From an uncultured Verrucomicrobiota bacterium (lineage in GTDB: Bacteria; Verrucomicrobiota; Kiritimatiellia; JAAZAB01), in contig CAYYWX010000001.1 in assembly GCA_964475405.1 (NCBI GenBank), forward strand, positions 6,333-70,332: 64,000 nucleotides of DNA, read 5' to 3'. Made by a program: the position numbers and the translations under genes. Positions 3,404-18,813 of this stretch are shown here, one piece after another. The stretch's first letter is position 1; the number at the start of each line of letters is the position of its first letter. The notes beneath the pieces are model-generated. The model had not been told where the DNA came from. It was given only the letters and a program-made list of their open reading frames with translations, and did no database searches.

Positions 3404-6001
3404 TTGACCAAACTTCCATTTCCGCCAATAATTGCTTCCATGTCGGTCAATCCCAACAAAAAACTTACAGGGTTGCGCCATTATCTTGCCGGAGCGCTGT
3501 CGGCGGCCTTTTTAACGGCGCTCCTCTGTTCAAGCGCTCCGGGCGCGAACCGGGATGACCTCCTCCTGGCCAACGCGGCGGCCGCGCTCGACGATGAACT
3601 GTACGAAAACGCCGAGCAGAACATCCGGCAGCACCTGAGCGGCGGCCGCGCCGACGGGCTGAAAACCGAATATGTCATCCTGCTCGCCCGGGCGCTGCAC
3701 GGCCAGAAACGCTACCCGGAAATGCTCAACCTGCTGCAACAGCGCCGCGGCGAATCGGAAAACAGCGCCCTGGCCGATGATTATTCGTTCTGGCTCGCGC
3801 TCGCCTGTTATGACAACTCCCAATTTGACGCGACGCTCAAACAAACCGATAACTTTGAAAAGCGCCATCCCGGTTCGCGGCTTATTCCCGACATCATCCG
3901 CCTGAGGGTAAAAACGCTTTTGAAACTCGGCCGGGAAGACGAGGCCATCGGGACCTTGGAGCAGCTGATCAAGGAACAAAAGGACGGCGACGAAATAGTC
4001 ATGGACCGGCTCTTGCTCGGGCAGATCCTGGCCAATGCCGGCCGGACGCAGGAAGCCTGCGCCATCCTTGAAAAGCTTCTCGTCTCCGTGCCTGACACCA
4101 GCACGGGGCAGAAGTGCCGCGTCATTCTCGGGCGGGTTTACATGGACCAGAAGCAATGGCAAAAAGCCCGGCTGGCCTTTGAGCCCCTGGTCACCCAGGG
4201 CAATGTTCCCAATAATTACCGGCGGCAGGCCATTGAATCGCTGGCGGAAATCGCGGCGGCGCAAGGCAAATTCAGCGAGGCGCTCGGCATCCTGGAAAGC
4301 GGCGCGCGCCAAATGCCAAACCCGCCGCATTCGCTTGAGCTTTCGCTGCGCAAGGGCGTTATATTGCTGGAAATGAAAAAAATTGACGAGGGAACGGCGT
4401 TGATTCACGACTATGTCAGCGCGCAAACAACCAACGCGATCGGCGCCAAGGTCCAGCTTGAGCTCGCGCAAACGCTCCTGAAAGGCGGCTATAACGAAAA
4501 AGCTCTGGTTGAATTCCAGAATTTCCTGGAAAGCTTCGCCGCGCAGGACGGTTTAACCGAGGCCTTCAAGGGAAAAGGAACGGCCCTTTTCAACCTGGAG
4601 CGCTACCATGAAGCCGCCGCCGCCTTCACCAGGGCCGACGAGGCCGCTAAAAACCCGGACGAAAAGGCGCAATGCCGCTATCGCACGGCGGACGCGCTCT
4701 TCGCGCTCGGCCAGTTCAAGGCCGCCGCCGAAACATACGCCCGGGCCGGCGAGATGCAACCGGATACCTGCCTGGCCATGATGGCGCTCTTTCAAACGGC
4801 GGAATGCCAGGCGCAAACCGGGAACATGCCCGGGGCGGAAAACACATTCTGGATTGTTTACGACACGGACCCAACCGACGCCCTCGCGCCGCGCGCCCTG
4901 CTGCGCCTCGCCGACCTTCTCCTGCAACAAAACAAACAGCGCGCGGCGGAAACCATTTACGCCTGGATTGACAATGATTATCCGGGCCAGTGGCGCGCGC
5001 GGTCGGTTTACGGGCGCGGCATGATCGCCTACCGTTCCGGCCGGTTCGCCGAGGCCCTGCAATGCTTTGAAGACACCCTGCGCCTGGCCGCCAAACCGGC
5101 CGCGGTCGGCGGGGACGATGAAGTCGCCGCGGAGGCGACTTACATGACGGGCTGGTCGTGCCTGATGCTCAACAAATCCGCCGAGGCCCGCGACCGCTTT
5201 GCCAAAGTGATCAGTTCCTATCCCCGCTCATCCAAGGCGCCCGAGGCGCTTTTCAGGATCGGCGAGGATGACTATAACAACAAGCGTTATAATTCCGCCG
5301 AAATTATATTCAGCCGCCTGGCGCATGATTATCCCGCCGCGCCGCTCGCCGCCGACGCCCTTTTCCGGGCGGGAAGATCCGCCCTGCAGCAAAACGAATT
5401 CAAGCGCGGCCGAGATTATTTTTCCGCCCTGATCAAAAATTATCCCGCCAGCCCGAAACGGCCCGAGGCCAGGTATTTCCAGGGGCTCGCGCTCTGCGAA
5501 TTGGGCCAGTTTGACGCCGCCATTCTCATTTTTAATGAAATAATCAAGCAATACCCGGACCACGACCTGGCGGAACCGGCCGCCATCAAGCGCGCCGACA
5601 GCCAGTTCGTTCTCGGCTCGGACGAGCCCAAGCGCTACGAGGAGGCGGTCGCCTCCTATCAGCTTGTCCTGGACCGGCCCGGTTGTTCCGCCGCAACGCG
5701 CCTGCAGGTGAAATATAAAATCGGGCGCTGCCTTGAAAAACTCGGCAAGACGAACGAGGCCTTTAACCAGTACTTGCAGGTCGTTTATTCATACCTGCAG
5801 AACCAGGAGCAAACGCCGGTTGGGGACCTTTGGTTCACCCGCGCGGCTTTCAACGCGGCCGGGATCCTGGAAGAACAGCAAAAATGGCGCCAGGCCGCCA
5901 ATATCTATGAAAGAGTGATCGAGGCCGATATCCCGGCCAGCCGCGATGCCGAGGAGCGCGTTGAAAAAATGCGCGCCGAGCACTGGTTGTCCTTTTATTA
6001 A
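3404..6001 (+). CDS. Large secreted tetratricopeptide (TPR) repeat protein
   Basis: N-terminal signal peptide (LAGALSAAFLTALLCSSAPGA), then ~800 aa of degenerate TPR-like helical repeats (recurrent A..Y/F...G....A). The true start may be the internal Met near 3440. Confidence 0.7.
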   Translation: MTKLPFPPIIASMSVNPNKKLTGLRHYLAGALSAAFLTALLCSSAPGANRDDLLLANAAAALDDELYENAEQNIRQHLSGGRADGLKTEYVILLARALHGQKRYPEMLNLLQQRRGESENSALADDYSFWLALACYDNSQFDATLKQTDNFEKRHPGSRLIPDIIRLRVKTLLKLGREDEAIGTLEQLIKEQKDGDEIVMDRLLLGQILANAGRTQEACAILEKLLVSVPDTSTGQKCRVILGRVYMDQKQWQKARLAFEPLVTQGNVPNNYRRQAIESLAEIAAAQGKFSEALGILESGARQMPNPPHSLELSLRKGVILLEMKKIDEGTALIHDYVSAQTTNAIGAKVQLELAQTLLKGGYNEKALVEFQNFLESFAAQDGLTEAFKGKGTALFNLERYHEAAAAFTRADEAAKNPDEKAQCRYRTADALFALGQFKAAAETYARAGEMQPDTCLAMMALFQTAECQAQTGNMPGAENTFWIVYDTDPTDALAPRALLRLADLLLQQNKQRAAETIYAWIDNDYPGQWRARSVYGRGMIAYRSGRFAEALQCFEDTLRLAAKPAAVGGDDEVAAEATYMTGWSCLMLNKSAEARDRFAKVISSYPRSSKAPEALFRIGEDDYNNKRYNSAEIIFSRLAHDYPAAPLAADALFRAGRSALQQNEFKRGRDYFSALIKNYPASPKRPEARYFQGLALCELGQFDAAILIFNEIIKQYPDHDLAEPAAIKRADSQFVLGSDEPKRYEEAVASYQLVLDRPGCSAATRLQVKYKIGRCLEKLGKTNEAFNQYLQVVYSYLQNQEQTPVGDLWFTRAAFNAAGILEEQQKWRQAANIYERVIEADIPASRDAEERVEKMRAEHWLSFY

Positions 6002-9678: not shown

Positions 9679-12195
9679 ATGCATCACACGGGGGAAATCC
9701 ACGTGTCCGAGTTGCCCTCGGGTTTCAAATATGTCATAGGTATTTCGGCCCTCTTCATCGCGGGCTGCTCGGCTTTCTTCTCGGTCTGCGGGCTGGGGTT
9801 CCTCTTCGCCGGGTCGGCCGCGGCGGTGATGATCATGGCCAGCAGCCTGGAAATCGGCAAGCTCGTCGCGGCCTCGTTCCTCTACCGCTACTGGCATTAC
9901 CTCAACCGCCTGCTCAAGCTTTACCTCCTGGTCGCGGTGCTGGTCCTGATCGGAATCACGTCGCTCGGCAACTACGGCTACCTCGCCCGGGCCTACGAGC
10001 GGACCCACACGCGCGTCACCCTTTTTGAAGGACAGATCGCGGCGCTCGAGAAGGAGATCGTCGACACCCAGCGCCAAATAGACAATTCGCGCAGCCAGCT
10101 CGGCAAAACCACCGATAACAGCCGCGAGGACATCGCGAAAATCCAGCAGCGCATACCGGAGGCCAACACCCTCATGGAGCAGTCGTTGACCCGCCTCCAG
10201 GAACGGCGCAAGACCGCGCAGGAACGGCGCGACCGCGATATCCAGGCGCTGACCCAGCAGCTCGCCGACAAGGCGGAAGTGCTGAAAAAAGCCATCGGCT
10301 CCGAAGAAAGCGCCATCACGGACTGCAACGTAAGCCTGGCCGTGCTGGACCGCGCGGTGGACGCCTATACCAAGGAGGGCGGCGCCGCCATCCTTAAACC
10401 AGACAGCGTCAAGAAAGGACAGGAACTCCGCGACAAGCAGCGCCCGGAACGCGACGCGCTCTTCGCCCAGATCGTCAGCCACCGCCTGCGCCAGGAACAG
10501 CAACGCTCCGACCTGGCGAAGGCGACCGAGGCCACCGACAAGGAGCTCGCCGCGATCCGCGCCAGGTCCGCAAGCGAAATGGCGCAGTTTGACTCCGATG
10601 AACAGGACCTGCGCGAGGCCCGCAACACGGCCGTCGCGCAAGCCGAGCAGCAACTGGCCGCGCTGCGATCGCAAGGCAAGACCATCGCCGCCGGCGGCGA
10701 CACGCAGATTGAAGCATTGTACCAGCGCATCCGCGCGCGCAATGAAGATATCCGCCTCCTGCGCGAACAGATTTCCTCGACCGACATCGGCTCCTACCGC
10801 TTCGTGGCCCGCGCGTTTGACACCCAGTCGGACAGCGTCGTCAAGTGGCTGACGCTCGTGCTGGTGCTGGTGTTTGACCCGCTCGCGGTCTCGTTGGCCG
10901 TCGGTTTCAACGTCGCGATCCTGACCGACCGGCGGAGCCGGATGCCGGTCGGCGGCGGATTATTTCCCTCCGAGGCGGTGAAAGAAAAAGAAACGCCGGT
11001 CGTTGCGAAGCGCCGCAATCGCTGGCTGTTCTTCGGCACCAGCCTGCTGTTGGTGATATTTATCATCGGCACGATCGCCGCCGCCACGAACTGGGGCATC
11101 CGGACCTGGCGGCACCAGTCGCTGGCCTCCCACGCCGCGTTCATCCCGGGTGACAGCTTTGCCGTGGTCGCCCTGCACCCCGCCGCCTTGCCACGGTTCG
11201 CCCAGCGCATGAATTTACTGGCCGTGCTTGGCGCGGACGCAAGCACCAATATCACGGAATTACTGACGCAGTTACGCAACAACGGCGTTGATCCGAGCGC
11301 CGACGTGTATGCCTTCGCCAAATTCCCGACGCTCCGCAAGGAAGATCGTGGTGACCGGCCGGTTATGCTGGTCGGCCTCGTGATGCAACTGGACGATGCC
11401 AAGGTGGCGGAAAGGGCATTCTCGCAGATAGCCGACCGGTTCGGTAACATCATGAGCACGAACGCCGTCGCATTTCCGTTGCTGACCAGAAACCGGGTGA
11501 TGGTGCGCTGCGGCCAGGGACGCTATATCGATCCCGAGGGCGGTTTTTTCACCTTCGGCCTCACGGACCGCGTCGCAGTGTTCCTGCTGGAATTTGAAGG
11601 CACCCAAAATGCATCCAACGTGGAAAACGAAATGCGGATATGCCTCGCGCCCGGCGAATCCCTCTCCGGGTCCACAAGCGTGCGCGCCAAGCTGCCGGAG
11701 CGGGCCTTGAGCCGCGACGGTGCGATCGCCGTATGGTTTGACGCAAACCGTTTTTTCAACGACCTGCCGAAGAATCCGGCCGCGCAAACGCGCTACGAGC
11801 AGCTTCAACAGTATCTCGGATTTGACCTCTTGTTGAAGGCACAGCCGGAAAACGCCGATCAGTTGCAAATAACAGCCGACTATGTCTACCAAGCGGAACG
11901 GTTCAAGAACGGCCAACAGTCGACCGCAATACAACAACTTGCCGGCCTCGGCCCGGTTGACCAGGCCGGAATCGCCGGACGGTTCATGGACCGTTGTGTT
12001 GACACGCTGGACTATGACTCGCTGATTGAAAAGTTCCGCGTTGCGCTCGGGAATGCGAAACAAAAAGGCGTACGGGATTTGGTTGTTGAAAAATCGTTCA
12101 TTTCGTCGCGTAACGCGCGGTTCGTGTTGACCGTCATCTGCGACCCGCAGGCCGGGCCTCCGATGCGAGCCGTGTTAAGCGCGCTCTGGCAATGA
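9679..12195 (+). CDS. Large polytopic membrane protein: N-terminal TM bundle, ~330-aa coiled-coil, TM hairpin, ~370-aa C-terminal domain; function unknown
   Basis: AAGGAGG RBS 5 nt before the ATG. Three to four N-terminal hydrophobic helices (GISALFIAGCSAFFSVCGLGFLFAG; AAVMIMASSLEIGKLVAASFL; LYLLVAVLVLIGITSLG). A long heptad-rich Q/R/E/A-rich region (residues ~110-440). Two further TM segments (WLTLVLVLVFDPLAVSLAVGFNVAIL; WLFFGTSLLLVIFIIGTIAAA). A C-terminal globular region with no motif I recognise. Confidence 0.75.
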   Translation: MHHTGEIHVSELPSGFKYVIGISALFIAGCSAFFSVCGLGFLFAGSAAAVMIMASSLEIGKLVAASFLYRYWHYLNRLLKLYLLVAVLVLIGITSLGNYGYLARAYERTHTRVTLFEGQIAALEKEIVDTQRQIDNSRSQLGKTTDNSREDIAKIQQRIPEANTLMEQSLTRLQERRKTAQERRDRDIQALTQQLADKAEVLKKAIGSEESAITDCNVSLAVLDRAVDAYTKEGGAAILKPDSVKKGQELRDKQRPERDALFAQIVSHRLRQEQQRSDLAKATEATDKELAAIRARSASEMAQFDSDEQDLREARNTAVAQAEQQLAALRSQGKTIAAGGDTQIEALYQRIRARNEDIRLLREQISSTDIGSYRFVARAFDTQSDSVVKWLTLVLVLVFDPLAVSLAVGFNVAILTDRRSRMPVGGGLFPSEAVKEKETPVVAKRRNRWLFFGTSLLLVIFIIGTIAAATNWGIRTWRHQSLASHAAFIPGDSFAVVALHPAALPRFAQRMNLLAVLGADASTNITELLTQLRNNGVDPSADVYAFAKFPTLRKEDRGDRPVMLVGLVMQLDDAKVAERAFSQIADRFGNIMSTNAVAFPLLTRNRVMVRCGQGRYIDPEGGFFTFGLTDRVAVFLLEFEGTQNASNVENEMRICLAPGESLSGSTSVRAKLPERALSRDGAIAVWFDANRFFNDLPKNPAAQTRYEQLQQYLGFDLLLKAQPENADQLQITADYVYQAERFKNGQQSTAIQQLAGLGPVDQAGIAGRFMDRCVDTLDYDSLIEKFRVALGNAKQKGVRDLVVEKSFISSRNARFVLTVICDPQAGPPMRAVLSALWQ

Positions 12196-13046
12196 AGAAA
12201 AAATCACTTATGCGCCGGGCGCGGTCATCGCTGATCCTTGCCTTCTGCCTCTCCCTCATCCTTGCCGTGACAGGTTGCCGGACAACCGGAAAAAAAACGG
12301 GCGGGCACGCCGGGTCATCATCGCCGGCCAAATCCGATTCTTCCCCGGCAGTGCCTGATCCTGACCTCAAAAAGAGCGAACAGCCCGCTCCCCCGGCCGA
12401 AGAAAAACCGGCAACTCCTCCATCTTTGCCCATAGCCGAAACGCCTTCAAACACAGTGGCTCTGCCGCCGCCGGCCGCGCCGACTAACAAGCCGGCGGCA
12501 ACTGGCGGCAATACAAATTTGGACAATTCGGTAAAATTGCCCCAACCACCGCCGGGTAAACCGCAAACCGCCGCTGATGCGTCCGCCGTCAGGTTGCAAA
12601 TTCCGGACCGCGGCCAAAATGCTTCCGGCGCCAAAACCAACCTGTTTTACCGGCCGACTCTGGGCGGCACCTCGCGCGCAACCGGCGCCACTAATGATAA
12701 TATCCCGGCAAGGCCGCTTCCCATCGGTCTTTGGCAATCGCTGACATCTTCCTCCAAACACGCAGGAAGCACCGCGCCGTTGATGACCCCCGGCGCCGGG
12801 CAGACGCCAAGCAACCATTCCGCGAACGGGGTTACCCTGCCGGTGAAGGGAGACGCTCATCCTGCGTCATCCGACAATGAAACCCCGGCGGCGGTCCTGC
12901 CGGTGGAGCCGTTGCTGGAGAACGGCGAGACCGAGGCGCAGCGGCGCGAACGGGAGGCGGCCCGGCAGGAATCCGAGCGCAAGGCGCGGGAGGCCGGGCG
13001 CGATAACCTCAATCGCGCCTTCTATAGGTTTTTGCTGGGACAATGA
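12192..13046 (+). CDS. Proline/alanine-rich lipoprotein, operon partner of the 838-aa protein
   Basis: ATGA start/stop overlap with the upstream gene. Lipobox (LILAVTGC). Long low-complexity P/A/T/S-rich region and a charged C-terminal helix (ETEAQRREREAARQESERKAREAGRD). Confidence 0.65.
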   Translation: MKKKSLMRRARSSLILAFCLSLILAVTGCRTTGKKTGGHAGSSSPAKSDSSPAVPDPDLKKSEQPAPPAEEKPATPPSLPIAETPSNTVALPPPAAPTNKPAATGGNTNLDNSVKLPQPPPGKPQTAADASAVRLQIPDRGQNASGAKTNLFYRPTLGGTSRATGATNDNIPARPLPIGLWQSLTSSSKHAGSTAPLMTPGAGQTPSNHSANGVTLPVKGDAHPASSDNETPAAVLPVEPLLENGETEAQRREREAARQESERKAREAGRDNLNRAFYRFLLGQ

Positions 13047-13109
13047 TTTTGCGCGAACATCGGCGTTCCAGCCGCTATCAAATTTCAACTGATTTACATC
13101 GAAAAACGG

Positions 13110-13790
13110 TTATGAGATTTGCTTAATCAGTGTTTCTAAATGTTCTCTACGCAAGGTGGCGAGAATACATTTTCCCCAGGTGGGCGGACACCTGGCCAAC
13201 AGGTCGCGCACAATTTGCATCTCCCTCTTCTTGTTGAGAAGATCAAGAATGAGAGCGGCAGCGTCAATATCCTTCCGCTTTTTCTCCACGTTCCTACGGC
13301 GAGGCGCGACGAGTAGCTTGTGCAAAGCAAACGCCGCCGGATGCGGCGCGTTTACCGGCACGTTCCCAAAATTAAGTCGAACGGTCATCATAAGGGCAAT
13401 CCCCATGAATCGAAGCGCCTGGGCATTCAGCTTGAGCTTTGGCAAATCCTGCAGGCCCTCGCTTCCGCGTCCCCGTTCAGGAACAAGGAACTCAATCATC
13501 AATTCTGGATGCTCCAGCATCATCACGCCTTGTGTGCCTCGAAATCCCGTGATGAACCCAAGGCCTTTCAGGAGCTCCGGGACATCCACCGTTTTGCGGA
13601 TTGCCGCCACGGATGGCACCAGGAAATCCATGTCGCGCGTACGCACGGCAGGAACAGCGCCGACATCCCGGAAATAGTCGCGGTATAGAACAAGACACCA
13701 GCTTCCGACCAGGACTAGATTTTGAAGCACCCCGGCTGCCTCCAGCTTGCTGAGCACATTCAGGCATAACTCATACTGCTTGTTTTGCAC
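13110..13790 (-). CDS. Nucleotidyltransferase-fold protein (pol-beta-like GS...D.D motif); candidate toxin/defence effector
   Basis: VLVGSWCLVLYRDYF...RTRDMDFLVP matches the hG[GS] ... [DE]h[DE]h minimal NTase pattern with a longer spacer than usual. AT-richer than the genome. Its start overlaps the upstream small gene by 20 nt. Confidence 0.55.
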   Translation of the reverse strand: MQNKQYELCLNVLSKLEAAGVLQNLVLVGSWCLVLYRDYFRDVGAVPAVRTRDMDFLVPSVAAIRKTVDVPELLKGLGFITGFRGTQGVMMLEHPELMIEFLVPERGRGSEGLQDLPKLKLNAQALRFMGIALMMTVRLNFGNVPVNAPHPAAFALHKLLVAPRRRNVEKKRKDIDAAALILDLLNKKREMQIVRDLLARCPPTWGKCILATLRREHLETLIKQIS

Positions 13791-14088
13791 GGAGCGCCTT
13801 CCTCATAAAAACAATTTGTTTTCGCACATCAGAGAGGAGCTTGCGGTACTGCACGCGAAACTGCCTGGCGTTCCGATACTTGGCTATCTCCCGCTCCTCC
13901 ATATTGCGGCCTTTATATAGAAACCTTACGCGGTTCTTTTCACGGTACGCAAGATAGTAGTAAGCCCGTCCGCGGATGATCTTTTTGACCACGCATCCGC
14001 GAGGCAGTTTGCCCAATGCGCGCCGGTAATCCCGCTCCATGCGGAGCGAGTTGCCCAGCTCTTCTTTTAGTAATTCCTTGATCGCCAT
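13771..14088 (-). CDS. Small basic protein (105 aa, K/R-rich) translationally overlapped with the NTase-fold gene; candidate antitoxin/regulatory partner
   Basis: Its ORF overlaps the start of the downstream gene. Highly basic (RGRAYYYLAYREKNRVRFLYKGRNMEEREIAKYRNARQFRVQYRKLL). Same AT-rich island. Confidence 0.5.
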   Translation of the reverse strand: MAIKELLKEELGNSLRMERDYRRALGKLPRGCVVKKIIRGRAYYYLAYREKNRVRFLYKGRNMEEREIAKYRNARQFRVQYRKLLSDVRKQIVFMRKALRAKQAV

Positions 14089-14523
14089 AAAGACCTCTTA
14101 ACTAACATCCTTGGCAATAAACATACCCAGCCTGGCAATTGATGTCAAGTTACCAAACATAGTGTCCATTTATCGCCATGTGTTTGGTAACGTCACGAAC
14201 CGCGGCAATTAAGGCAGGGAGTCCGGGGATTACGCTCATTTCCAGACGCATGCCACCAAACCCTGTTATTTCGTCGGACTACTTATTCTGACCTGGATTC
14301 CCTGGCCGAGCTCGGGCAGGCCCGTTTTCACGGGAATGACATTATAGCGCCGGTCAAAAACGGATGATTTTGGCCGGGTTAAAAATGGATTAACAATACA
14401 TTATAGTTACATCTTTGTCGGCAACTGTTCTACAGGTGGGGCGAACCCTCAGGGTGAGCCGATCTCAGAACGGCTCGGCAGGGACGCCTCGCCCTACCAT
14501 TTTTAAAATTCTACACATCAGAA

Positions 14524-15327
14524 TTAAAACTGGTAGGAAACGCCGATGCTGAGCACCGGGTAGAACCGGAATTTGTCGGCCTGGTTTTGCGCGTCGTCCT
14601 CTTCCTCCTGGAGGTCCGCGAGGAAAGTCGCGTCTTGCGACTTGGTGCCGTCCGCGCTCAGACTGACGCTGGGCGTGCCCTGGAACACGACGCCCAGGTC
14701 AAAGACAAAATTCCAGGCGGTATCCGGGCCGCCGACGGCGTTGCCGAACCCGATGCCGACATAAGGCCCGAAATTATTGAATTTTACCGAGCCGCTCAAA
14801 GTGCCGACTTCCTCGGGCGTGTAAAAATGCTCGCCGATCTTCTGGACGGCGTTCAGCGTGGCGTCCAGATCGCCGCGGTTGCGATTATAAAGCACGCCGC
14901 CGCTGACCCGGAAATTGTTGCCGAACGGATGCCAGTCCAGCATCAGCGGCACGGAAGCCCATTTGACATCCACCTTGTATTCCAGGTCATGGATGGTAGT
15001 GGTGAACCGCAGCGGCAGGTAATTGCCACCCACGCGCAGGTTGAGATATGATTCGACCACCCCGACCGTTACTTCCACTCCCGGGCCAAGCGTGCCGATC
15101 TTGATCGCCGCCCCGATCCAGGGCGGATAATATTCCGTTTCTTCCATTTCAAGGTCGCCGGTCTTGATCGTGGTCGTGGTGGTGGTGATGACCGTTGTTT
15201 TTTTCGCGGCGGAAGAATTGCCATCCGGGACCTCGCGCCCGGCTGCCGCGGCGTTTTGCACCAGAAGCCCGCCCGGGGCGATTAATCCGGCAAGAACAAG
15301 AGCGAGACAAGCGCGATTATATTGCAT
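14524..15327 (-). CDS. Outer-membrane beta-barrel protein (OmpA-like/opacity-family 8-strand barrel)
   Basis: Signal peptide (ACLALVLAGLIAPGGLLVQNAAAA), alternating amphipathic beta strands with aromatic girdle residues, and a C-terminal ...VSYQF ending in Phe. Confidence 0.7.
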   Translation of the reverse strand: MQYNRACLALVLAGLIAPGGLLVQNAAAAGREVPDGNSSAAKKTTVITTTTTTIKTGDLEMEETEYYPPWIGAAIKIGTLGPGVEVTVGVVESYLNLRVGGNYLPLRFTTTIHDLEYKVDVKWASVPLMLDWHPFGNNFRVSGGVLYNRNRGDLDATLNAVQKIGEHFYTPEEVGTLSGSVKFNNFGPYVGIGFGNAVGGPDTAWNFVFDLGVVFQGTPSVSLSADGTKSQDATFLADLQEEEDDAQNQADKFRFYPVLSIGVSYQF

Positions 15328-15351: not shown

Positions 15352-18300
15352 CTACTTGATTTCAATCTTCATGATCCTGGTCTCATACGGCGCGAGGGTC
15401 ATGGTCGGGCTATCTTCCTTCGCGGCGGCGTTGTAATTCCAGATCGCCTTGATCGGGGTGGCTGCCGGGGCGGTCAACTTAACCTCCACACTCTTGCCGG
15501 TGGTGTTGGCCAGGTAGGTCAGGAGCGCGCCCTCCGCGGACACGGTGCGCGATTCAACGCCCGGCGGGTAGCCGCCGTCCGGCGTGAAGGCCCGGACCGG
15601 ACGCTGGAAACGCAAGTCATCCATCAACCGGTCCAGGAGCGCCCGGCGGCTGTCCACCGTGAGCTGGGCCGCAAGGTATATGACGCGCCCCCTGCCGACC
15701 GGGCGCGAGAGGATTGCCGGCTCCCCGCTTCCCGCGTAGGTTGCCATGACCTGCCAATCCGCGGAGGCCTTCACGCTCTGGATGACGCCCGCCGCGTCAA
15801 GGTTCTCCGGCGCGGCGGCCAGGAATCCGCTCTTCTTGACGGCAACCGTGCGCTTGGGTTCCTTTGAGACGATCGTCTTGGCGACCGGTCCCTGGATGAA
15901 ATCCAGCTCGCCGGTCTGCGCGATGCCCGGCTTGGCTTCCCCGGCCTTGATCTCGGGCAGTTCCTCGGCAAGCAGTTCCAGGCCGAGGTTCCCCAGGTAA
16001 TCGCGCTTGCGGTTGTATTCGTCGGCCACGAGCGAGGTCGGCGTAATGAGCAATGTGCCGCCGCCGGCGACCCATTCCTTAAGCCTGACAAAGACATCCT
16101 CTTCCACGTAGCGGCAGCCGGGGATGACGACCAGCTTGAAGTTGGCCGGGATATTCTCGCGGACGCGGCGCGAGGAAACGAAACCGACCGGCGCGTCAAG
16201 CCGCACCGCGGCCTGGTAGGTCTTCTCCATCTCCAGCGCATAGGGCGTCTTGTGTCCCTGGGTCCGGGGATCGAGCTGGATCAGGGTGGCGCGTGGATAT
16301 AAAAGGGCTATTTCGGCCGGGGCATCCGGGAACGGCGCGATCTGTTTCGCGAGGCGGCGGACATCCAGGGCCGTGCGCATGACCGTGCCCACTTCCTCCA
16401 GTGAGATTGTCGCGGAATGCCGCAAGGCGCTGTTGTCAAACTCCCCTTCACCCGGCGGCCACCACCAGTAATCCATCATTCCGCAGCCGTGGAGGAACAT
16501 GAGGAAGCAGGTGTTCGGCAAGGCATGATATTCCGGGTCAAGGATGGGGACCGGACGGGAGACGAGGTGCCGCTGCAAATCCATCACGCTCGTTACGCCC
16601 AGCGCCCGGCTGCCGGTTTCCGACAGGAATATGTCGTTGACCCCGTCGCGGATCAGGCCCTCCTCGTCAATGCCCTGCCGCCAGAATCCGCTCCCGAACG
16701 GTTCGCCGCCGCCGGTCGTCAGCGGGAGGCCCGGCGCGGCCTTGTTGACTTCACTCTTGGCCCATTTCATGTAATCCGTGAAGCGCCAGAGGTTGAAATC
16801 GCCGAAGTCGTAATACTTGGCCGGGTTGGGTTCCGTCTTGTCCGGCGCATACTCCGACAGGTTAATCTCCTTGAAATCCTTGAAGGCCGTCTTCCAGACG
16901 GCATTGAGTTTTTCCACGCTCCCATACTTGCGCCCGAGCCACTGGCGGAAGAGGTCGGCGGAATAAACGTCGTAATTCACGTAAGAATATTCAAAACCGA
17001 CGTTCACGTAAAGGTTGCCGGGCTTGACGCCCTGGCGCTGGCCGTAGCGGGCAATGGATTTGGCGATGGCCTCGCGCATCTTCGGGCTATCAAGGTTAAT
17101 GACGCAACGCTCCCTGCTGCCGCCCGCGGAGTACTGGTCGCAGATGATGTGTCCGCACCAGCCGCCGTCATAGACGCGGTGGGTCTCGGGATATTTCTGG
17201 TAGGCCTCCCAGACCGGCGTGCTCTGCACGTCGTAGCGGCTCGCGCCGACGGCCGAAATGCTGTAATGATGCGTCCGCGGGGAAAACCAACGTATCAGCT
17301 CGCCGGAGTTATGATACTGCATTGAGAAAAGTATTTTCGGCTCGTCGCCCTCGCAGAAGTAGCGTCCCTTCAATTTTAGTTTCGTGAAGTCCGGGTGGGG
17401 CGGCACCTTGATGTCCGGCGCCTTGCCGGCCATGATGTCCTTCAGGCGCCGGGCGGCCACTTGGCTGGATTGAAGAATGTAGGCCGCGTTCGTCCCGCGC
17501 TGTCCGAGATGGTTTGGCAAATCCCAGCGCACATTAAAGGCAAGAGCGCTTAAAACAATTGGAATCTCGTCGTAAAGAGTTTCAACGCCCCTGGTCTTGG
17601 CCTCCGCCACGACGGTTTTCAACTCCGCCAGGGCCTGCTCCGCCTCGGCGCGGCGCGCGCCCTGCTCCGGCGTTTCCGTCACCAGCGGCGGATCAGCCTT
17701 CATTTCCCGCCCGGTCTCGGCCAGCGTTACGCCGCACTTGGCGTCAAGGTCCATTCCCGTAAGGCTCACATCGTCCACCCAGACACGGCCCCGGCCCTTG
17801 CCGGACAACTGGATGAAGACTTTCACGGCGGGGCACTTGTCGGGCACGTCAAACACCAGCTCCGCCCTCGTCCAGGCGTAGGTGCCCGGCAAGGTCATGA
17901 CCGCGTCGGGAAGGGGTCGCTCGCCGGAATCCGTCACCAATATGCTGGGCACGCCCTGGCCCTGGCTCTGCACGTAGGCGGTCAGTTTCAGGCGGGTGGG
18001 ATATTGCACCGGGATGAGCGGCGAGAAAAATCCGATTTTGCACGGGCCCCTGGCGTCAAGCATCGCCGAGGCGCTGCCGGAATAAACGGCCTTCTCTCCC
18101 TTCCCCAGGAAACTCCGCCCTTCCCAGCGCCGGGCGTTCCACCATTTGAACGGATTGCCCAGGGCATCGGGCGTTTGCAGATCCTCAAACGATCCGTTGA
18201 CCAGGAGTTCCTTGTAGGGCATTTTTACCATGGCGGCCTTAGGAATCACGGGAGGGTTCTCGGAAAGGTACATGTTGTCAATATAGACCATGATCTCTTG

Positions 18301-18813
18301 CGGGCAATTCTTGTAGAGGCAGATGAACGCCACGTTGCCGCGGTCCAATTCAACCCGGTTCTTGAGATCATCCAGGTCAATGGTGAGCGTATTGACCCCC
18401 GGGCCGAGGATGAACGATGATTCGGCCTTATGGAACGCCTTGTCGCGGATCCAGATTCCGAACTCGGCCGGCAGCTGGCCATCAAGGAAGACGTCAACGT
18501 TCAGATACCTGAACCCGGTCCAGTCGGAAGGCATCTTGTCCGTCAGGATATTGGACCACTCGGGCTTGTTGGTGTAATAAACCTTCAGCGACTTTTTGCC
18601 CTGTGTGACGTGCCTGGCAGAAACTTCAAACGGCGAATGATTTTCGCTTTTCCAGATGGAAGCATCCTCAAAATCAACGATGCTTTTTACGCGGCCCACG
18701 CCGGACGGCGGGGCATCCGCCCCGGACGCGCAAATTGCCCCAATTCCCAGGACAGTGATCATGGCCAGTATTCTCCCCCGCAGTTGCATATGATTATTCC
18801 TTTCAAAGGACAC
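15352..18813 (-). CDS. Large secreted glycoside hydrolase, GH42-like beta-galactosidase architecture with N-terminal beta-sandwich (CBM-like) extension
   Basis: Signal peptide. The segment FRQWLGRKYGSVEKLNAVWKTAF resembles the conserved GH42 motif (F..WL..KYG....LN.AW). A C-terminal glutamine-amidotransferase-like trimerisation-type segment (VRLKEWVAGGGTLLITPTS). Assignment to GH42 is by motif recall only. Confidence 0.6.
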   Translation of the reverse strand: MSFERNNHMQLRGRILAMITVLGIGAICASGADAPPSGVGRVKSIVDFEDASIWKSENHSPFEVSARHVTQGKKSLKVYYTNKPEWSNILTDKMPSDWTGFRYLNVDVFLDGQLPAEFGIWIRDKAFHKAESSFILGPGVNTLTIDLDDLKNRVELDRGNVAFICLYKNCPQEIMVYIDNMYLSENPPVIPKAAMVKMPYKELLVNGSFEDLQTPDALGNPFKWWNARRWEGRSFLGKGEKAVYSGSASAMLDARGPCKIGFFSPLIPVQYPTRLKLTAYVQSQGQGVPSILVTDSGERPLPDAVMTLPGTYAWTRAELVFDVPDKCPAVKVFIQLSGKGRGRVWVDDVSLTGMDLDAKCGVTLAETGREMKADPPLVTETPEQGARRAEAEQALAELKTVVAEAKTRGVETLYDEIPIVLSALAFNVRWDLPNHLGQRGTNAAYILQSSQVAARRLKDIMAGKAPDIKVPPHPDFTKLKLKGRYFCEGDEPKILFSMQYHNSGELIRWFSPRTHHYSISAVGASRYDVQSTPVWEAYQKYPETHRVYDGGWCGHIICDQYSAGGSRERCVINLDSPKMREAIAKSIARYGQRQGVKPGNLYVNVGFEYSYVNYDVYSADLFRQWLGRKYGSVEKLNAVWKTAFKDFKEINLSEYAPDKTEPNPAKYYDFGDFNLWRFTDYMKWAKSEVNKAAPGLPLTTGGGEPFGSGFWRQGIDEEGLIRDGVNDIFLSETGSRALGVTSVMDLQRHLVSRPVPILDPEYHALPNTCFLMFLHGCGMMDYWWWPPGEGEFDNSALRHSATISLEEVGTVMRTALDVRRLAKQIAPFPDAPAEIALLYPRATLIQLDPRTQGHKTPYALEMEKTYQAAVRLDAPVGFVSSRRVRENIPANFKLVVIPGCRYVEEDVFVRLKEWVAGGGTLLITPTSLVADEYNRKRDYLGNLGLELLAEELPEIKAGEAKPGIAQTGELDFIQGPVAKTIVSKEPKRTVAVKKSGFLAAAPENLDAAGVIQSVKASADWQVMATYAGSGEPAILSRPVGRGRVIYLAAQLTVDSRRALLDRLMDDLRFQRPVRAFTPDGGYPPGVESRTVSAEGALLTYLANTTGKSVEVKLTAPAATPIKAIWNYNAAAKEDSPTMTLAPYETRIMKIEIK

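Follow-up and report, generated by a model that had tools for sequence, protein, structure and literature searches.

The stretch of DNA analysed here, referred to below as the window, comprises 64,000 nucleotides of contig CAYYWX010000001.1 from an uncultured Verrucomicrobiota bacterium, and carries on its minus strand two overlapping genes, one for a strongly basic protein of 105 amino acids (aa) and, downstream of it, one for a 226-aa protein of nucleotidyltransferase (NTase) type. The original prediction, made from the letters of the DNA and a list of its open reading frames (ORFs), had described such a pair in an AT-rich patch as a candidate toxin-antitoxin (TA) or abortive-infection (Abi) module. 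Both ORFs were found as described, with an overlap of 20 nt, and in the ORF list the frame of the NTase is +1 with respect to that of the small gene. The lower GC content of the supposed AT-rich patch relative to its flanks is genuine but modest (0.49-0.56 over positions 13000-14400 vs 0.58-0.68). At E ≤ 1e-3, 720 homologues of the large protein were found and, in a word-indexed search, 110 of the small one; because homologues are this many, both ORFs are genuine genes and not chance ORFs. An exhaustive profile search for the small protein returned 826 cluster representatives, nearly all of 100-115 aa. A contig identical to that of the window was found in a groundwater metagenome, and the closest named relatives are metagenome-assembled genomes (MAGs) of Verrucomicrobiota/Kiritimatiellia.

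The large protein matches the Pfam family PF12281 (NTP_transf_8) over residues 11-191 (E = 4.2e-24, 86.2 bits against a gathering cut-off of 26.3), and its homologues bear the NCBI name “GSU2403 family nucleotidyltransferase fold protein”, so that the earlier guess of a GSU2403-like pol-beta NTase was well placed. It is basic (isoelectric point, pI, 9.8; net charge +11). Its AlphaFold2 (AF2) model, with a predicted local distance difference test score (pLDDT) of 93, has the NTase fold that had been supposed and lies nearest to the MenT/AbiEii toxin group. The closest solved structures, with their comparison scores, included the fungal NTase-like protein 5uvd (13.1), the MenT1 toxin (11.3), ANT(2'') (10.6), the TglT/MenT3 toxin (10.6), the MenT4 toxin (9.6), JHP933 (9.3), LnuA (9.2) and AbiEi (8.0). 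The active-site residues are G29 S30, T51 R52 D53 D55, E100, K158, R164 R165 and K173 D174, and the GS...D.D signature pointed out in the original prediction is present in them as G29-S30 and D53-x-D55. Each of G29, S30, T51, R52, D53, D55, E100, K158, R165 and D174 is retained in 183 or more of the 193 aligned family members: position 158 is K in 183 and R in 10, R165 is found in all 193, and position 174 is D in 191.

We then compared these residues with the motifs of known toxins. The pattern of motifs I and II, hG[GS]x(9-15)DhD with an arginine in motif II, is present as V-G29-S30...T51-R52-D53-M-D55, with a spacer of 22 residues. In DUF1814 proteins motif III reads KLxAaxxR and motif IV +DxxD, and the spacer of AbiEii is 15 residues long (PMC3985639); motif III is matched by H157-K158-L-L-V-A-P-R164-R165. 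In its predicted structure the NTase shares the three-dimensional fold of the DUF1814/AbiEii/MenT toxins, together with three of their four motifs. MenT1 has a T39-R40-D41-x-D43 loop in which T39 is the site of autophosphorylation and both aspartates bind Mg2+ (PMC11375011). Judged by motif pattern and fold similarity, T51-R52-D53-x-D55 appears to show the same pattern as this loop, and K158 and D174 appear to be spaced like K137 and D152 of MenT1. No match of the large protein was found in PHROGs or to PF01909 in Pfam, and nothing relevant among PDB sequences, whether a single sequence or a profile was used.

The small protein contains 12 K, 19 R, 2 D, 8 E and no histidine, giving a net charge of about +20 and a pI of 10.9. 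Without any histidine it holds no HEPN Rx4-6H motif, and at 105 aa, with no AbiEi match in Pfam or PADLOC, it is not an AbiEi-like partner; both points had been made in the original prediction and are borne out. Its AF2 model (pLDDT 92) consists of a helix (residues 3-27), a three-stranded β-sheet (32-60) and a second helix (65-100), and the invariant residues P29, G31, K36, Y43, Y45, R49, F56, Y58 and G60 cluster in the sheet. Searches against Pfam, NCBIfam, PADLOC, PHROGs and PDB sequences gave noise only, and the matches to NtrY_N (E = 0.05), NDT_II-A (0.036) and ribosomal L35 (0.055) were discarded.

The origin of the small protein became apparent from the usual architecture of PF12281, a domain of about 100 aa followed by the NTase in one chain of about 340 aa, from which the window pair departs in being two genes. 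Such long-form GSU2403 proteins have 330-380 aa, with PF12281 beginning near residue 105, an N-domain that is basic (pI 9.9) and an NTase domain with a pI of 6.4. Distant PF12281 relatives (about 30% identity) on 155 alphaproteobacterial plasmids are likewise single genes, of 336-349 aa, in which PF12281 covers only residues ~104-311. A hidden Markov model (HMM) of the small protein matches residues ~30-92 of 100 out of 101 long proteins (48 at E ≤ 1e-3, the best at 1e-6), and alignment of the small-protein family with the long-form N-termini in hhalign gives a probability of 90% and an E-value of 1.6e-6 over 62 columns. The HMM of PF20586 (DUF6788) does not match the window protein at E ≤ 1 and reaches 0.18 in one relative; in precomputed annotation PF20586 is assigned to many homologues of the small protein and, beside PF12281, to many long forms. 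Because the HMM, hhalign and the shared PF20586 agree, we take the small protein to be the detached N-terminal domain of the canonical ~340-aa GSU2403 proteins, and the window pair to be a split form of this two-domain protein.

Other domain arrangements were seen in the course of these searches. A subset of long proteins (~446-469 aa; P0306, P0320-P0322, P0326, P0333, P0335-P0337, P0339 and P0350; locus L096:3001-4389) has an extra C-terminal PF07369 (DUF1488) domain, giving a DUF6788-NTase-DUF1488 architecture. In P0460 (209 aa; gene 756-1385 of a 1535-nt contig of JGI 3300075153), a small-like domain at residues 3-104 is fused to PF01909 (NTP_transf_2), an MNT-type NTase; the downstream gene overlaps it by 4 nt, ends at the contig edge and may be a HEPN partner. 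In P0452 (530 aa) a small-like domain at residues 20-97 precedes a regulator with Peripla_BP_3 and an AraC-type helix-turn-helix (HTH), either as a genuine fusion or through gene-calling read-through. An 83-aa ORF that overlaps the end of one long form looks spurious.

To follow the pair across genomes, GTDB was scanned with one genome per species, which gave 303 relatives, and the analysis continued with the 80 best loci among them (41-84% identity). Under taxon labels that, for MAGs, are the submitters' own, these belong to Verrucomicrobiota, Lentisphaerae, Planctomycetota, Omnitrophota, Elusimicrobia, Margulisiibacteriota/WOR-1, Clostridia, Zixibacteria, Sumerlaeota and a Gloeobacteraceae cyanobacterium. 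The two genes, described as a module in the original prediction, do occur together elsewhere: a homologue of the small protein (E 1e-22 to 1e-52) lies directly upstream on the same strand in 80 of 80 loci, across at least 10 phyla. The junction is equally constant. The GTG start of the NTase lies 20 nt before the end of the small-gene stop in 77 of 81 loci (GTG/TGA in 59, GTG/TAA in 18); 55 of these 77 have a Shine-Dalgarno-like 4-mer within the small gene, 6-9 nt upstream of the GTG, and 63 have a stop in the NTase frame no more than 10 codons upstream of it. Since GTG, Shine-Dalgarno-like site, overlap and upstream stops are kept across loci, the junction is one of conserved translational coupling, and neither a frameshifted pseudogene nor a recoding site. 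Divergent relatives of the small protein (profile E ~1e-13) are followed by a PF12281 gene in the three places where this could be read, and have the same type of operator as that described below.

The surroundings of the cassette vary. No conserved third gene was found around the related loci, and the 123 immediate neighbour genes fall into 158 Pfam families, mostly housekeeping, with 4 integrases, 4 Fic/DOC proteins, 2 GIY-YIG proteins and 2 terminases among them. In the flanks of L005-L084, six loci have a small GIY-YIG ORF near the cassette, four a tyrosine integrase and four a Fic/DOC protein, the other neighbours being unrelated housekeeping genes. Two genomes each carry two copies of the cassette. 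NTase identity reaches 83% between Omnitrophota and Planctomycetota and 73% between Clostridia and Omnitrophota, with within-phylum minima of 46-51%. The plasmids that carry distant relatives and the lowered GC content of the window pair were also counted as signs of mobility. Taken at the level of sequence, the cassette is an autonomous unit, horizontally mobile between phyla, and it shows what TA modules in general show: two genes forming an autonomous unit, variable context, horizontal spread and multiple copies. In three loci the NTase is broken, by a frameshift (L009:3914-4593), an N-terminal truncation (L061:4093-4606) or replacement of the C-terminus (L066:1330-2425), and the small gene is intact each time. 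A divergent cassette (L099:568-1002) keeps its small gene beside an NTase of 144 aa with an internal deletion, profile positions ~110-187 being gone; this type (L099/L098:1998-2078), whose small gene P0489 occurs on 8 contigs, also keeps a TTGCCTAACA/TGTTAGGCAA double operator, and may represent a toxin in decay whose regulator has been kept.

A conserved control region precedes the small gene (Table 1). In the window, a σ70-type promoter is flanked by a perfect inverted repeat, IR1, the pattern of which has 1 match in the 64 kb and 0 in 100 shuffles. Across related loci, the best inverted repeat within the 160 nt upstream of the small gene has on average 12.6 matched positions, vs 5.7 in shuffled sequence, and is nearly always the same motif. 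Half-sites TGTNNGGTAA, allowing one mismatch, occur at 17.6/kb in the 200 nt upstream and at 0.55/kb elsewhere, and 268 half-sites yield the consensus TGT(A/T)TGGTAA(C). The standard layout consists of two inverted repeats, with half-sites 30-31 bp apart in each and TTGACA between the repeats; the left half of the second repeat, IR2, fills the 17-nt promoter spacer, TATAnT lies inside IR2, and its right half is located just before the ribosome-binding site. IR2 is degenerate in the window and intact in the relatives L005, L006, L008 and L009. Neither the half-sites nor the -35 hexamer vary among the five closest relatives, whereas the spacers do, and AAGAGGTC at the small-gene Shine-Dalgarno is invariant among the closest relatives. 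Upstream of long forms, too, half-sites recur three or four times, some of them of the same ..GGTAA type. An RNA element was considered and rejected: the control region has no Rfam match, and IR1 lies upstream of the -35 hexamer and is hence untranscribed. Because this motif accompanies the cassette across many phyla, its conservation implies that the protein which binds the operator is encoded by the cassette itself, and with it autorepression. The obvious candidate for this role is the small protein with its charge of +20, to which the N-domain corresponds in long forms. The double-operator promoter supports an autoregulated, TA-like operon. In one locus (L028) five matches resembling half-sites, at exact intervals of 9 nt, follow the cassette (~4916-4962, 1214-1250 nt from the small-gene start in the downstream direction); they are probably an unrelated short tandem repeat.

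Table 1. Coordinates of the gene pair, its junction and its control region in the window
Feature	Position	Strand	Description
Small-protein gene	13771..14088	minus	ORF, ATG start, 105 aa, DUF6788-like
NTase gene	13110..13790	minus	ORF, GTG start, 226 aa, PF12281/GSU2403 family
Gene overlap, translational-coupling junction	13771..13790	minus	20 nt, reaching to the TGA stop of the small gene; NTase GTG inside the last small-gene codons
Shine-Dalgarno-like GAGGAAGG inside small gene	13797..13804	minus	6 nt 5' of the NTase GTG
Operator IR1, TTACCAAACA-N21-TGTTTGGTAA	14150..14190	.	Perfect inverted repeat, abuts the -35 hexamer
-35 hexamer TTGACA	14143..14148	minus	Promoter scan, 10/12 matches, 17-nt spacer
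-10 hexamer TATGTT	14120..14125	minus	Promoter scan
Operator IR2, degenerate in the window	14098..14138	.	From comparison with related loci
IR2 left half TTGCCAGGCT	14129-14138	.	6/10 matches; occupies the -35/-10 spacer
IR2 right half TGTTAGTTAA	14098-14107	.	8/10 matches; abuts the ribosome-binding site
Shine-Dalgarno GAGG of small gene	14094..14097	minus	5 nt upstream of the ATG

How might such a cassette work? The reading that we favour, and on which belief and doubt are about evenly balanced, is that it is a MenAT/AbiE-like NTase toxin-antitoxin module with a new kind of partner protein. In this model, a σ70 promoter embedded in two inverted-repeat operators (half-site TGTWTGGTAA, 30 bp from centre to centre) would drive the small protein, and translation of the NTase would be coupled to the small gene via the internal Shine-Dalgarno site, the GTG start and the 20-nt overlap. 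By attaching nucleotides to the 3' end of an RNA, with the tRNA acceptor end as the most plausible target, the NTase would stop translation, as MenT-type toxins extend tRNA 3' ends (PMC7450476, PMC10435456). The small protein would have two tasks: with its three-stranded sheet it would occupy the operators and so repress the operon, and with its long helices it would keep the NTase inactive, possibly through induced autophosphorylation of T51. The sequences themselves establish the two genes, their family and predicted fold, the conserved motifs, the obligate pairing and the coupling, the relation of split to fused forms, the arrangement of operators and promoter, the varying context and the transfer between phyla; in this scheme we infer the identity of the DNA-binding protein, the toxicity of the NTase, its substrate and its neutralisation by the small protein. 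The reading is favoured because the fold and catalytic signature match toxins that extend tRNA 3' ends, because gene order, coupling and the double-operator promoter resemble those of AbiE, because the distribution resembles that of a selfish module, and because the NTase is sometimes broken while the small gene is intact, as in L009, L061, L066 and L099. The fusion of a small-like domain to an MNT-type NTase, the antitoxin class of HEPN/MNT systems, was also counted in its favour.

A number of observations weigh against it. Firstly, those that concern the NTase: motif IV is matched in part, K173-D174 being conserved and the second aspartate not conserved in the alignment, and the large protein has no match to PF08843 (AbiEii/DUF1814) at E ≤ 1 and none in NCBIfam or PADLOC. 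Secondly, comparison of the small-protein model with solved structures gave no significant fold match that would support DNA binding, and the mutual information between variable operator positions and protein columns peaks at ~0.55, at similar values in both proteins owing to shared phylogeny, and so singles out neither as the DNA binder. Thirdly, the survey of neighbour Pfam families showed no enrichment of the cassette in defence neighbourhoods, no match to the module was found among phage records in INPHARED and no confirmed one among IMG/VR viral contigs; the PADLOC defence models do not match the module either. The literature searched makes no mention of PF12281, NTP_transf_8, DUF6788 or PF20586; GSU2403 occurs in it once, as a “hypothetical protein” in an expression table, and neither the relation of split to fused forms nor the conservation of the coupling and of the operator-promoter appears to have been described. 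The derivation of the small protein from a domain of a larger one makes a simple poison-antidote relation less certain. The long forms are single genes without a conserved partner gene, and a single chain as the usual form fits a two-domain enzyme equally well, a fused antidote and poison being unusual. Most neutralising pairs, moreover, are unlike the window proteins, both of which are strongly basic (+20 and +11), and because of this the small protein may just supply nucleic-acid binding.

These last points lead to a serious rival of the toxin-antitoxin reading, one that is possible though we doubt it: that the pair is a non-toxic two-subunit enzyme, with the small subunit as the nucleic-acid-binding domain, for targeting and self-regulation, that the NTase needs to act on its physiological substrate, and no poison-antidote relation between them. 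Candidate substrates would be DNA or RNA ends, a protein, or else the small partner. The Rosetta-stone relation speaks for such an enzyme, resting on the HMM match in 100 of 101 long proteins, the hhalign E-value of 1.6e-6 and the joint presence of PF20586 and PF12281 in long forms, as do the solitary occurrence of these forms, the basic character of both window proteins together with that of the N-domain alone in long forms (pI 9.9 vs 6.4), and the lack of any defence-island or phage association in the neighbour survey, INPHARED and IMG/VR; tight translational coupling would also suit 1:1 assembly. However, a patchy, multi-copy, cross-phylum and plasmid distribution is typical of selfish modules and not of housekeeping enzymes, the active site is of MenT/AbiEii toxin type, it is the NTase genes that decay and the small gene that is retained, and TA operons are characteristically built for strong self-repression.

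A special case of the toxin-antitoxin reading, which we regard as unlikely, is an abortive-infection or innate-immune sensor of the fused-TA, CapRel-like type, in which the small protein or N-domain would silence the NTase until it is itself bound or displaced by a phage product, whereupon the NTase would halt translation. The coexistence of single-chain and split forms would suit this, given the precedent of CapRelSJ46, in which toxin and antitoxin are fused and phage proteins are sensed (PMC9712102); among related NTases, AbiEii acts as an Abi effector (PMC3985639), and integrases, Fic/DOC proteins and terminases occur among the neighbours. Those neighbours are nevertheless mostly housekeeping genes, PADLOC gives no match, the hosts are uncultivated, and no feature of the sequence suggests a sensor surface. 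A small-molecule NTase of the antibiotic-modifying ANT/Lnu kind with a dedicated repressor is most improbable, as the T-R-D-x-D, K..RR and KD motifs agree with those of DUF1814 toxins, no NCBIfam resistance model matches, and the cassette is spread over MAGs of environmental anaerobes; to our knowledge, a repressor that obligately overlaps or is fused with a resistance enzyme is not an established pattern. Finally, an artefact (chance ORFs, a frameshift-broken long GSU2403 pseudogene or a programmed-frameshift fusion) is scarcely credible, for although the NTase frame is shifted by +1 against that of the small gene and fused forms occur elsewhere, the split with its 20-nt overlap, own GTG and Shine-Dalgarno site is kept in 77 of 81 loci and more than 10 phyla, both proteins are under strong purifying selection, inspection of the conserved overlap revealed no +1 slippery site, and a programmed frameshift in particular was rejected on account of the +1 frame, the stop just upstream of the GTG (within 10 codons in 63 of 77 loci) and the conservation of Shine-Dalgarno and GTG.

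The genes that flank the pair in the window provide no functional context except for a glycosidase, a beta-galactosidase of glycoside hydrolase family 42 (GH42) type at 15352..18813. On the plus strand, an 838-aa protein (9679-12195) is followed by a Pro/Ala-rich, lipoprotein-like protein of 284 aa (12192-13046), the start of which overlaps the end of the 838-aa gene by 4 nt; on the minus strand, ORF 14524-15327 encodes a 267-aa protein. None of these three has a Pfam match at E ≤ 1e-3. About 320 nt of intergenic DNA (14200-14523), with no Rfam match, lie upstream of the cassette; they include a GC-rich palindrome, CCTGGCCGAGCTCGGGCAGG, at 14301-14320, upstream of the cassette promoter, and one arm of a 14-nt hairpin (14493-14506 / 14524-14537) that spans the stop codon of ORF 14524..15327.

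MenT/AbiEii-type NTase toxins are an active topic, on account of tRNA poisoning, antitoxin-induced autophosphorylation and phage defence. If the toxin-antitoxin reading is true, the cassette would add to them a whole Pfam family that has no functional literature and thousands of members, from plasmids of Alphaproteobacteria to MAGs of the Planctomycetota-Verrucomicrobiota-Chlamydiota (PVC) group, Omnitrophota and Clostridia. More broadly, and only tentatively, we propose that PF12281/GSU2403 may form an unrecognised class of autoregulated NTase toxins, with a neutralising DNA-binding module supplied in cis (in the 340-aa proteins) or in trans; this module would have a new fold, a helical hairpin tipped by a three-stranded sheet, would read TGTWTGGTAA half-sites three helical turns (30 bp) apart, and would be reused as a domain with MNT-type NTases. 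The cassette is compact, ~1.1 kb with its own promoter and operators. Its natural split and fused versions provide a built-in test of whether the N-domain is an inhibitor or a required subunit, and the strong conservation of the operators makes DNA recognition by an apparently new small fold directly testable. Should the pair instead be a non-toxic enzyme, its annotation, now “nucleotidyltransferase fold protein” beside “hypothetical protein”, could be upgraded to “self-regulating DNA-binding NTase”.

Among known systems, MenAT1 of Mycobacterium tuberculosis (Rv0078B/Rv0078A) likewise pairs an NTase of ~200 aa with a short partner encoded upstream of it (MenA1 has 68 aa, the cassette protein 105), has an identical T-R-D-x-D loop pattern with K and D similarly spaced, and has a partner made mostly of long helices; a single MenA1 helix suffices to neutralise MenT1 (PMC10435456). 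It differs in that MenT1 belongs to DUF1814, whereas the cassette NTase belongs to PF12281 and has no PF08843 match. MenA1 has no DNA-binding domain and MenAT1 no transcriptional autoregulation, while the cassette partner is highly basic, contains a three-stranded sheet, has conserved operators and also occurs fused to the NTase. AbiE (AbiEi/AbiEii), a type IV TA and Abi system, is alike in its overlapping bicistronic operon with the regulator first and the NTase second, and in NTase motifs I to III with an arginine in motif II (PMC3985639). AbiEi represses abiE via two inverted repeats (PMC3985639), and the cassette too has two at its promoter, IR1 and IR2 around the -35 and -10, with a putative repressor. 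In contrast to the 105-aa helix-sheet-helix partner of the cassette, AbiEi is a COG5340 protein with an N-terminal winged HTH and a C-terminal domain; the gene overlap is 20 nt in the cassette and 4 nt in AbiE, the spacer from G[GS] to DxD 22 and 15 residues, and motif IV just +D in the one and +DxxD in the other.

The HEPN/MNT systems (HepT/MntA, type VII) also place a minimal pol-beta NTase in a two-gene module, and in P0460 a small-like domain is joined to an NTase of MNT type; the cassette, however, has neither a HEPN partner nor an Rx4-6H motif, its NTase is not of PF01909, and gene order and roles differ. Fused TA proteins such as CapRelSJ46 and EzeT have toxin and antitoxin folds unrelated to those of the cassette; they join an antitoxin and a toxin domain in one chain, as the long GSU2403 forms would if the toxin-antitoxin reading is true. 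The single-chain GSU2403 proteins themselves (~340 aa; plasmids of Paracoccus, Cereibacter, Methylobacterium and Roseibium) are one polypeptide with another operator spacing, an acidic NTase domain and, in some, an extra C-terminal DUF1488, and in these respects they are unlike the cassette; they share with it an NTase domain at ~30% identity, the type of N-terminal domain and repeated upstream half-sites, some of them ..GGTAA.

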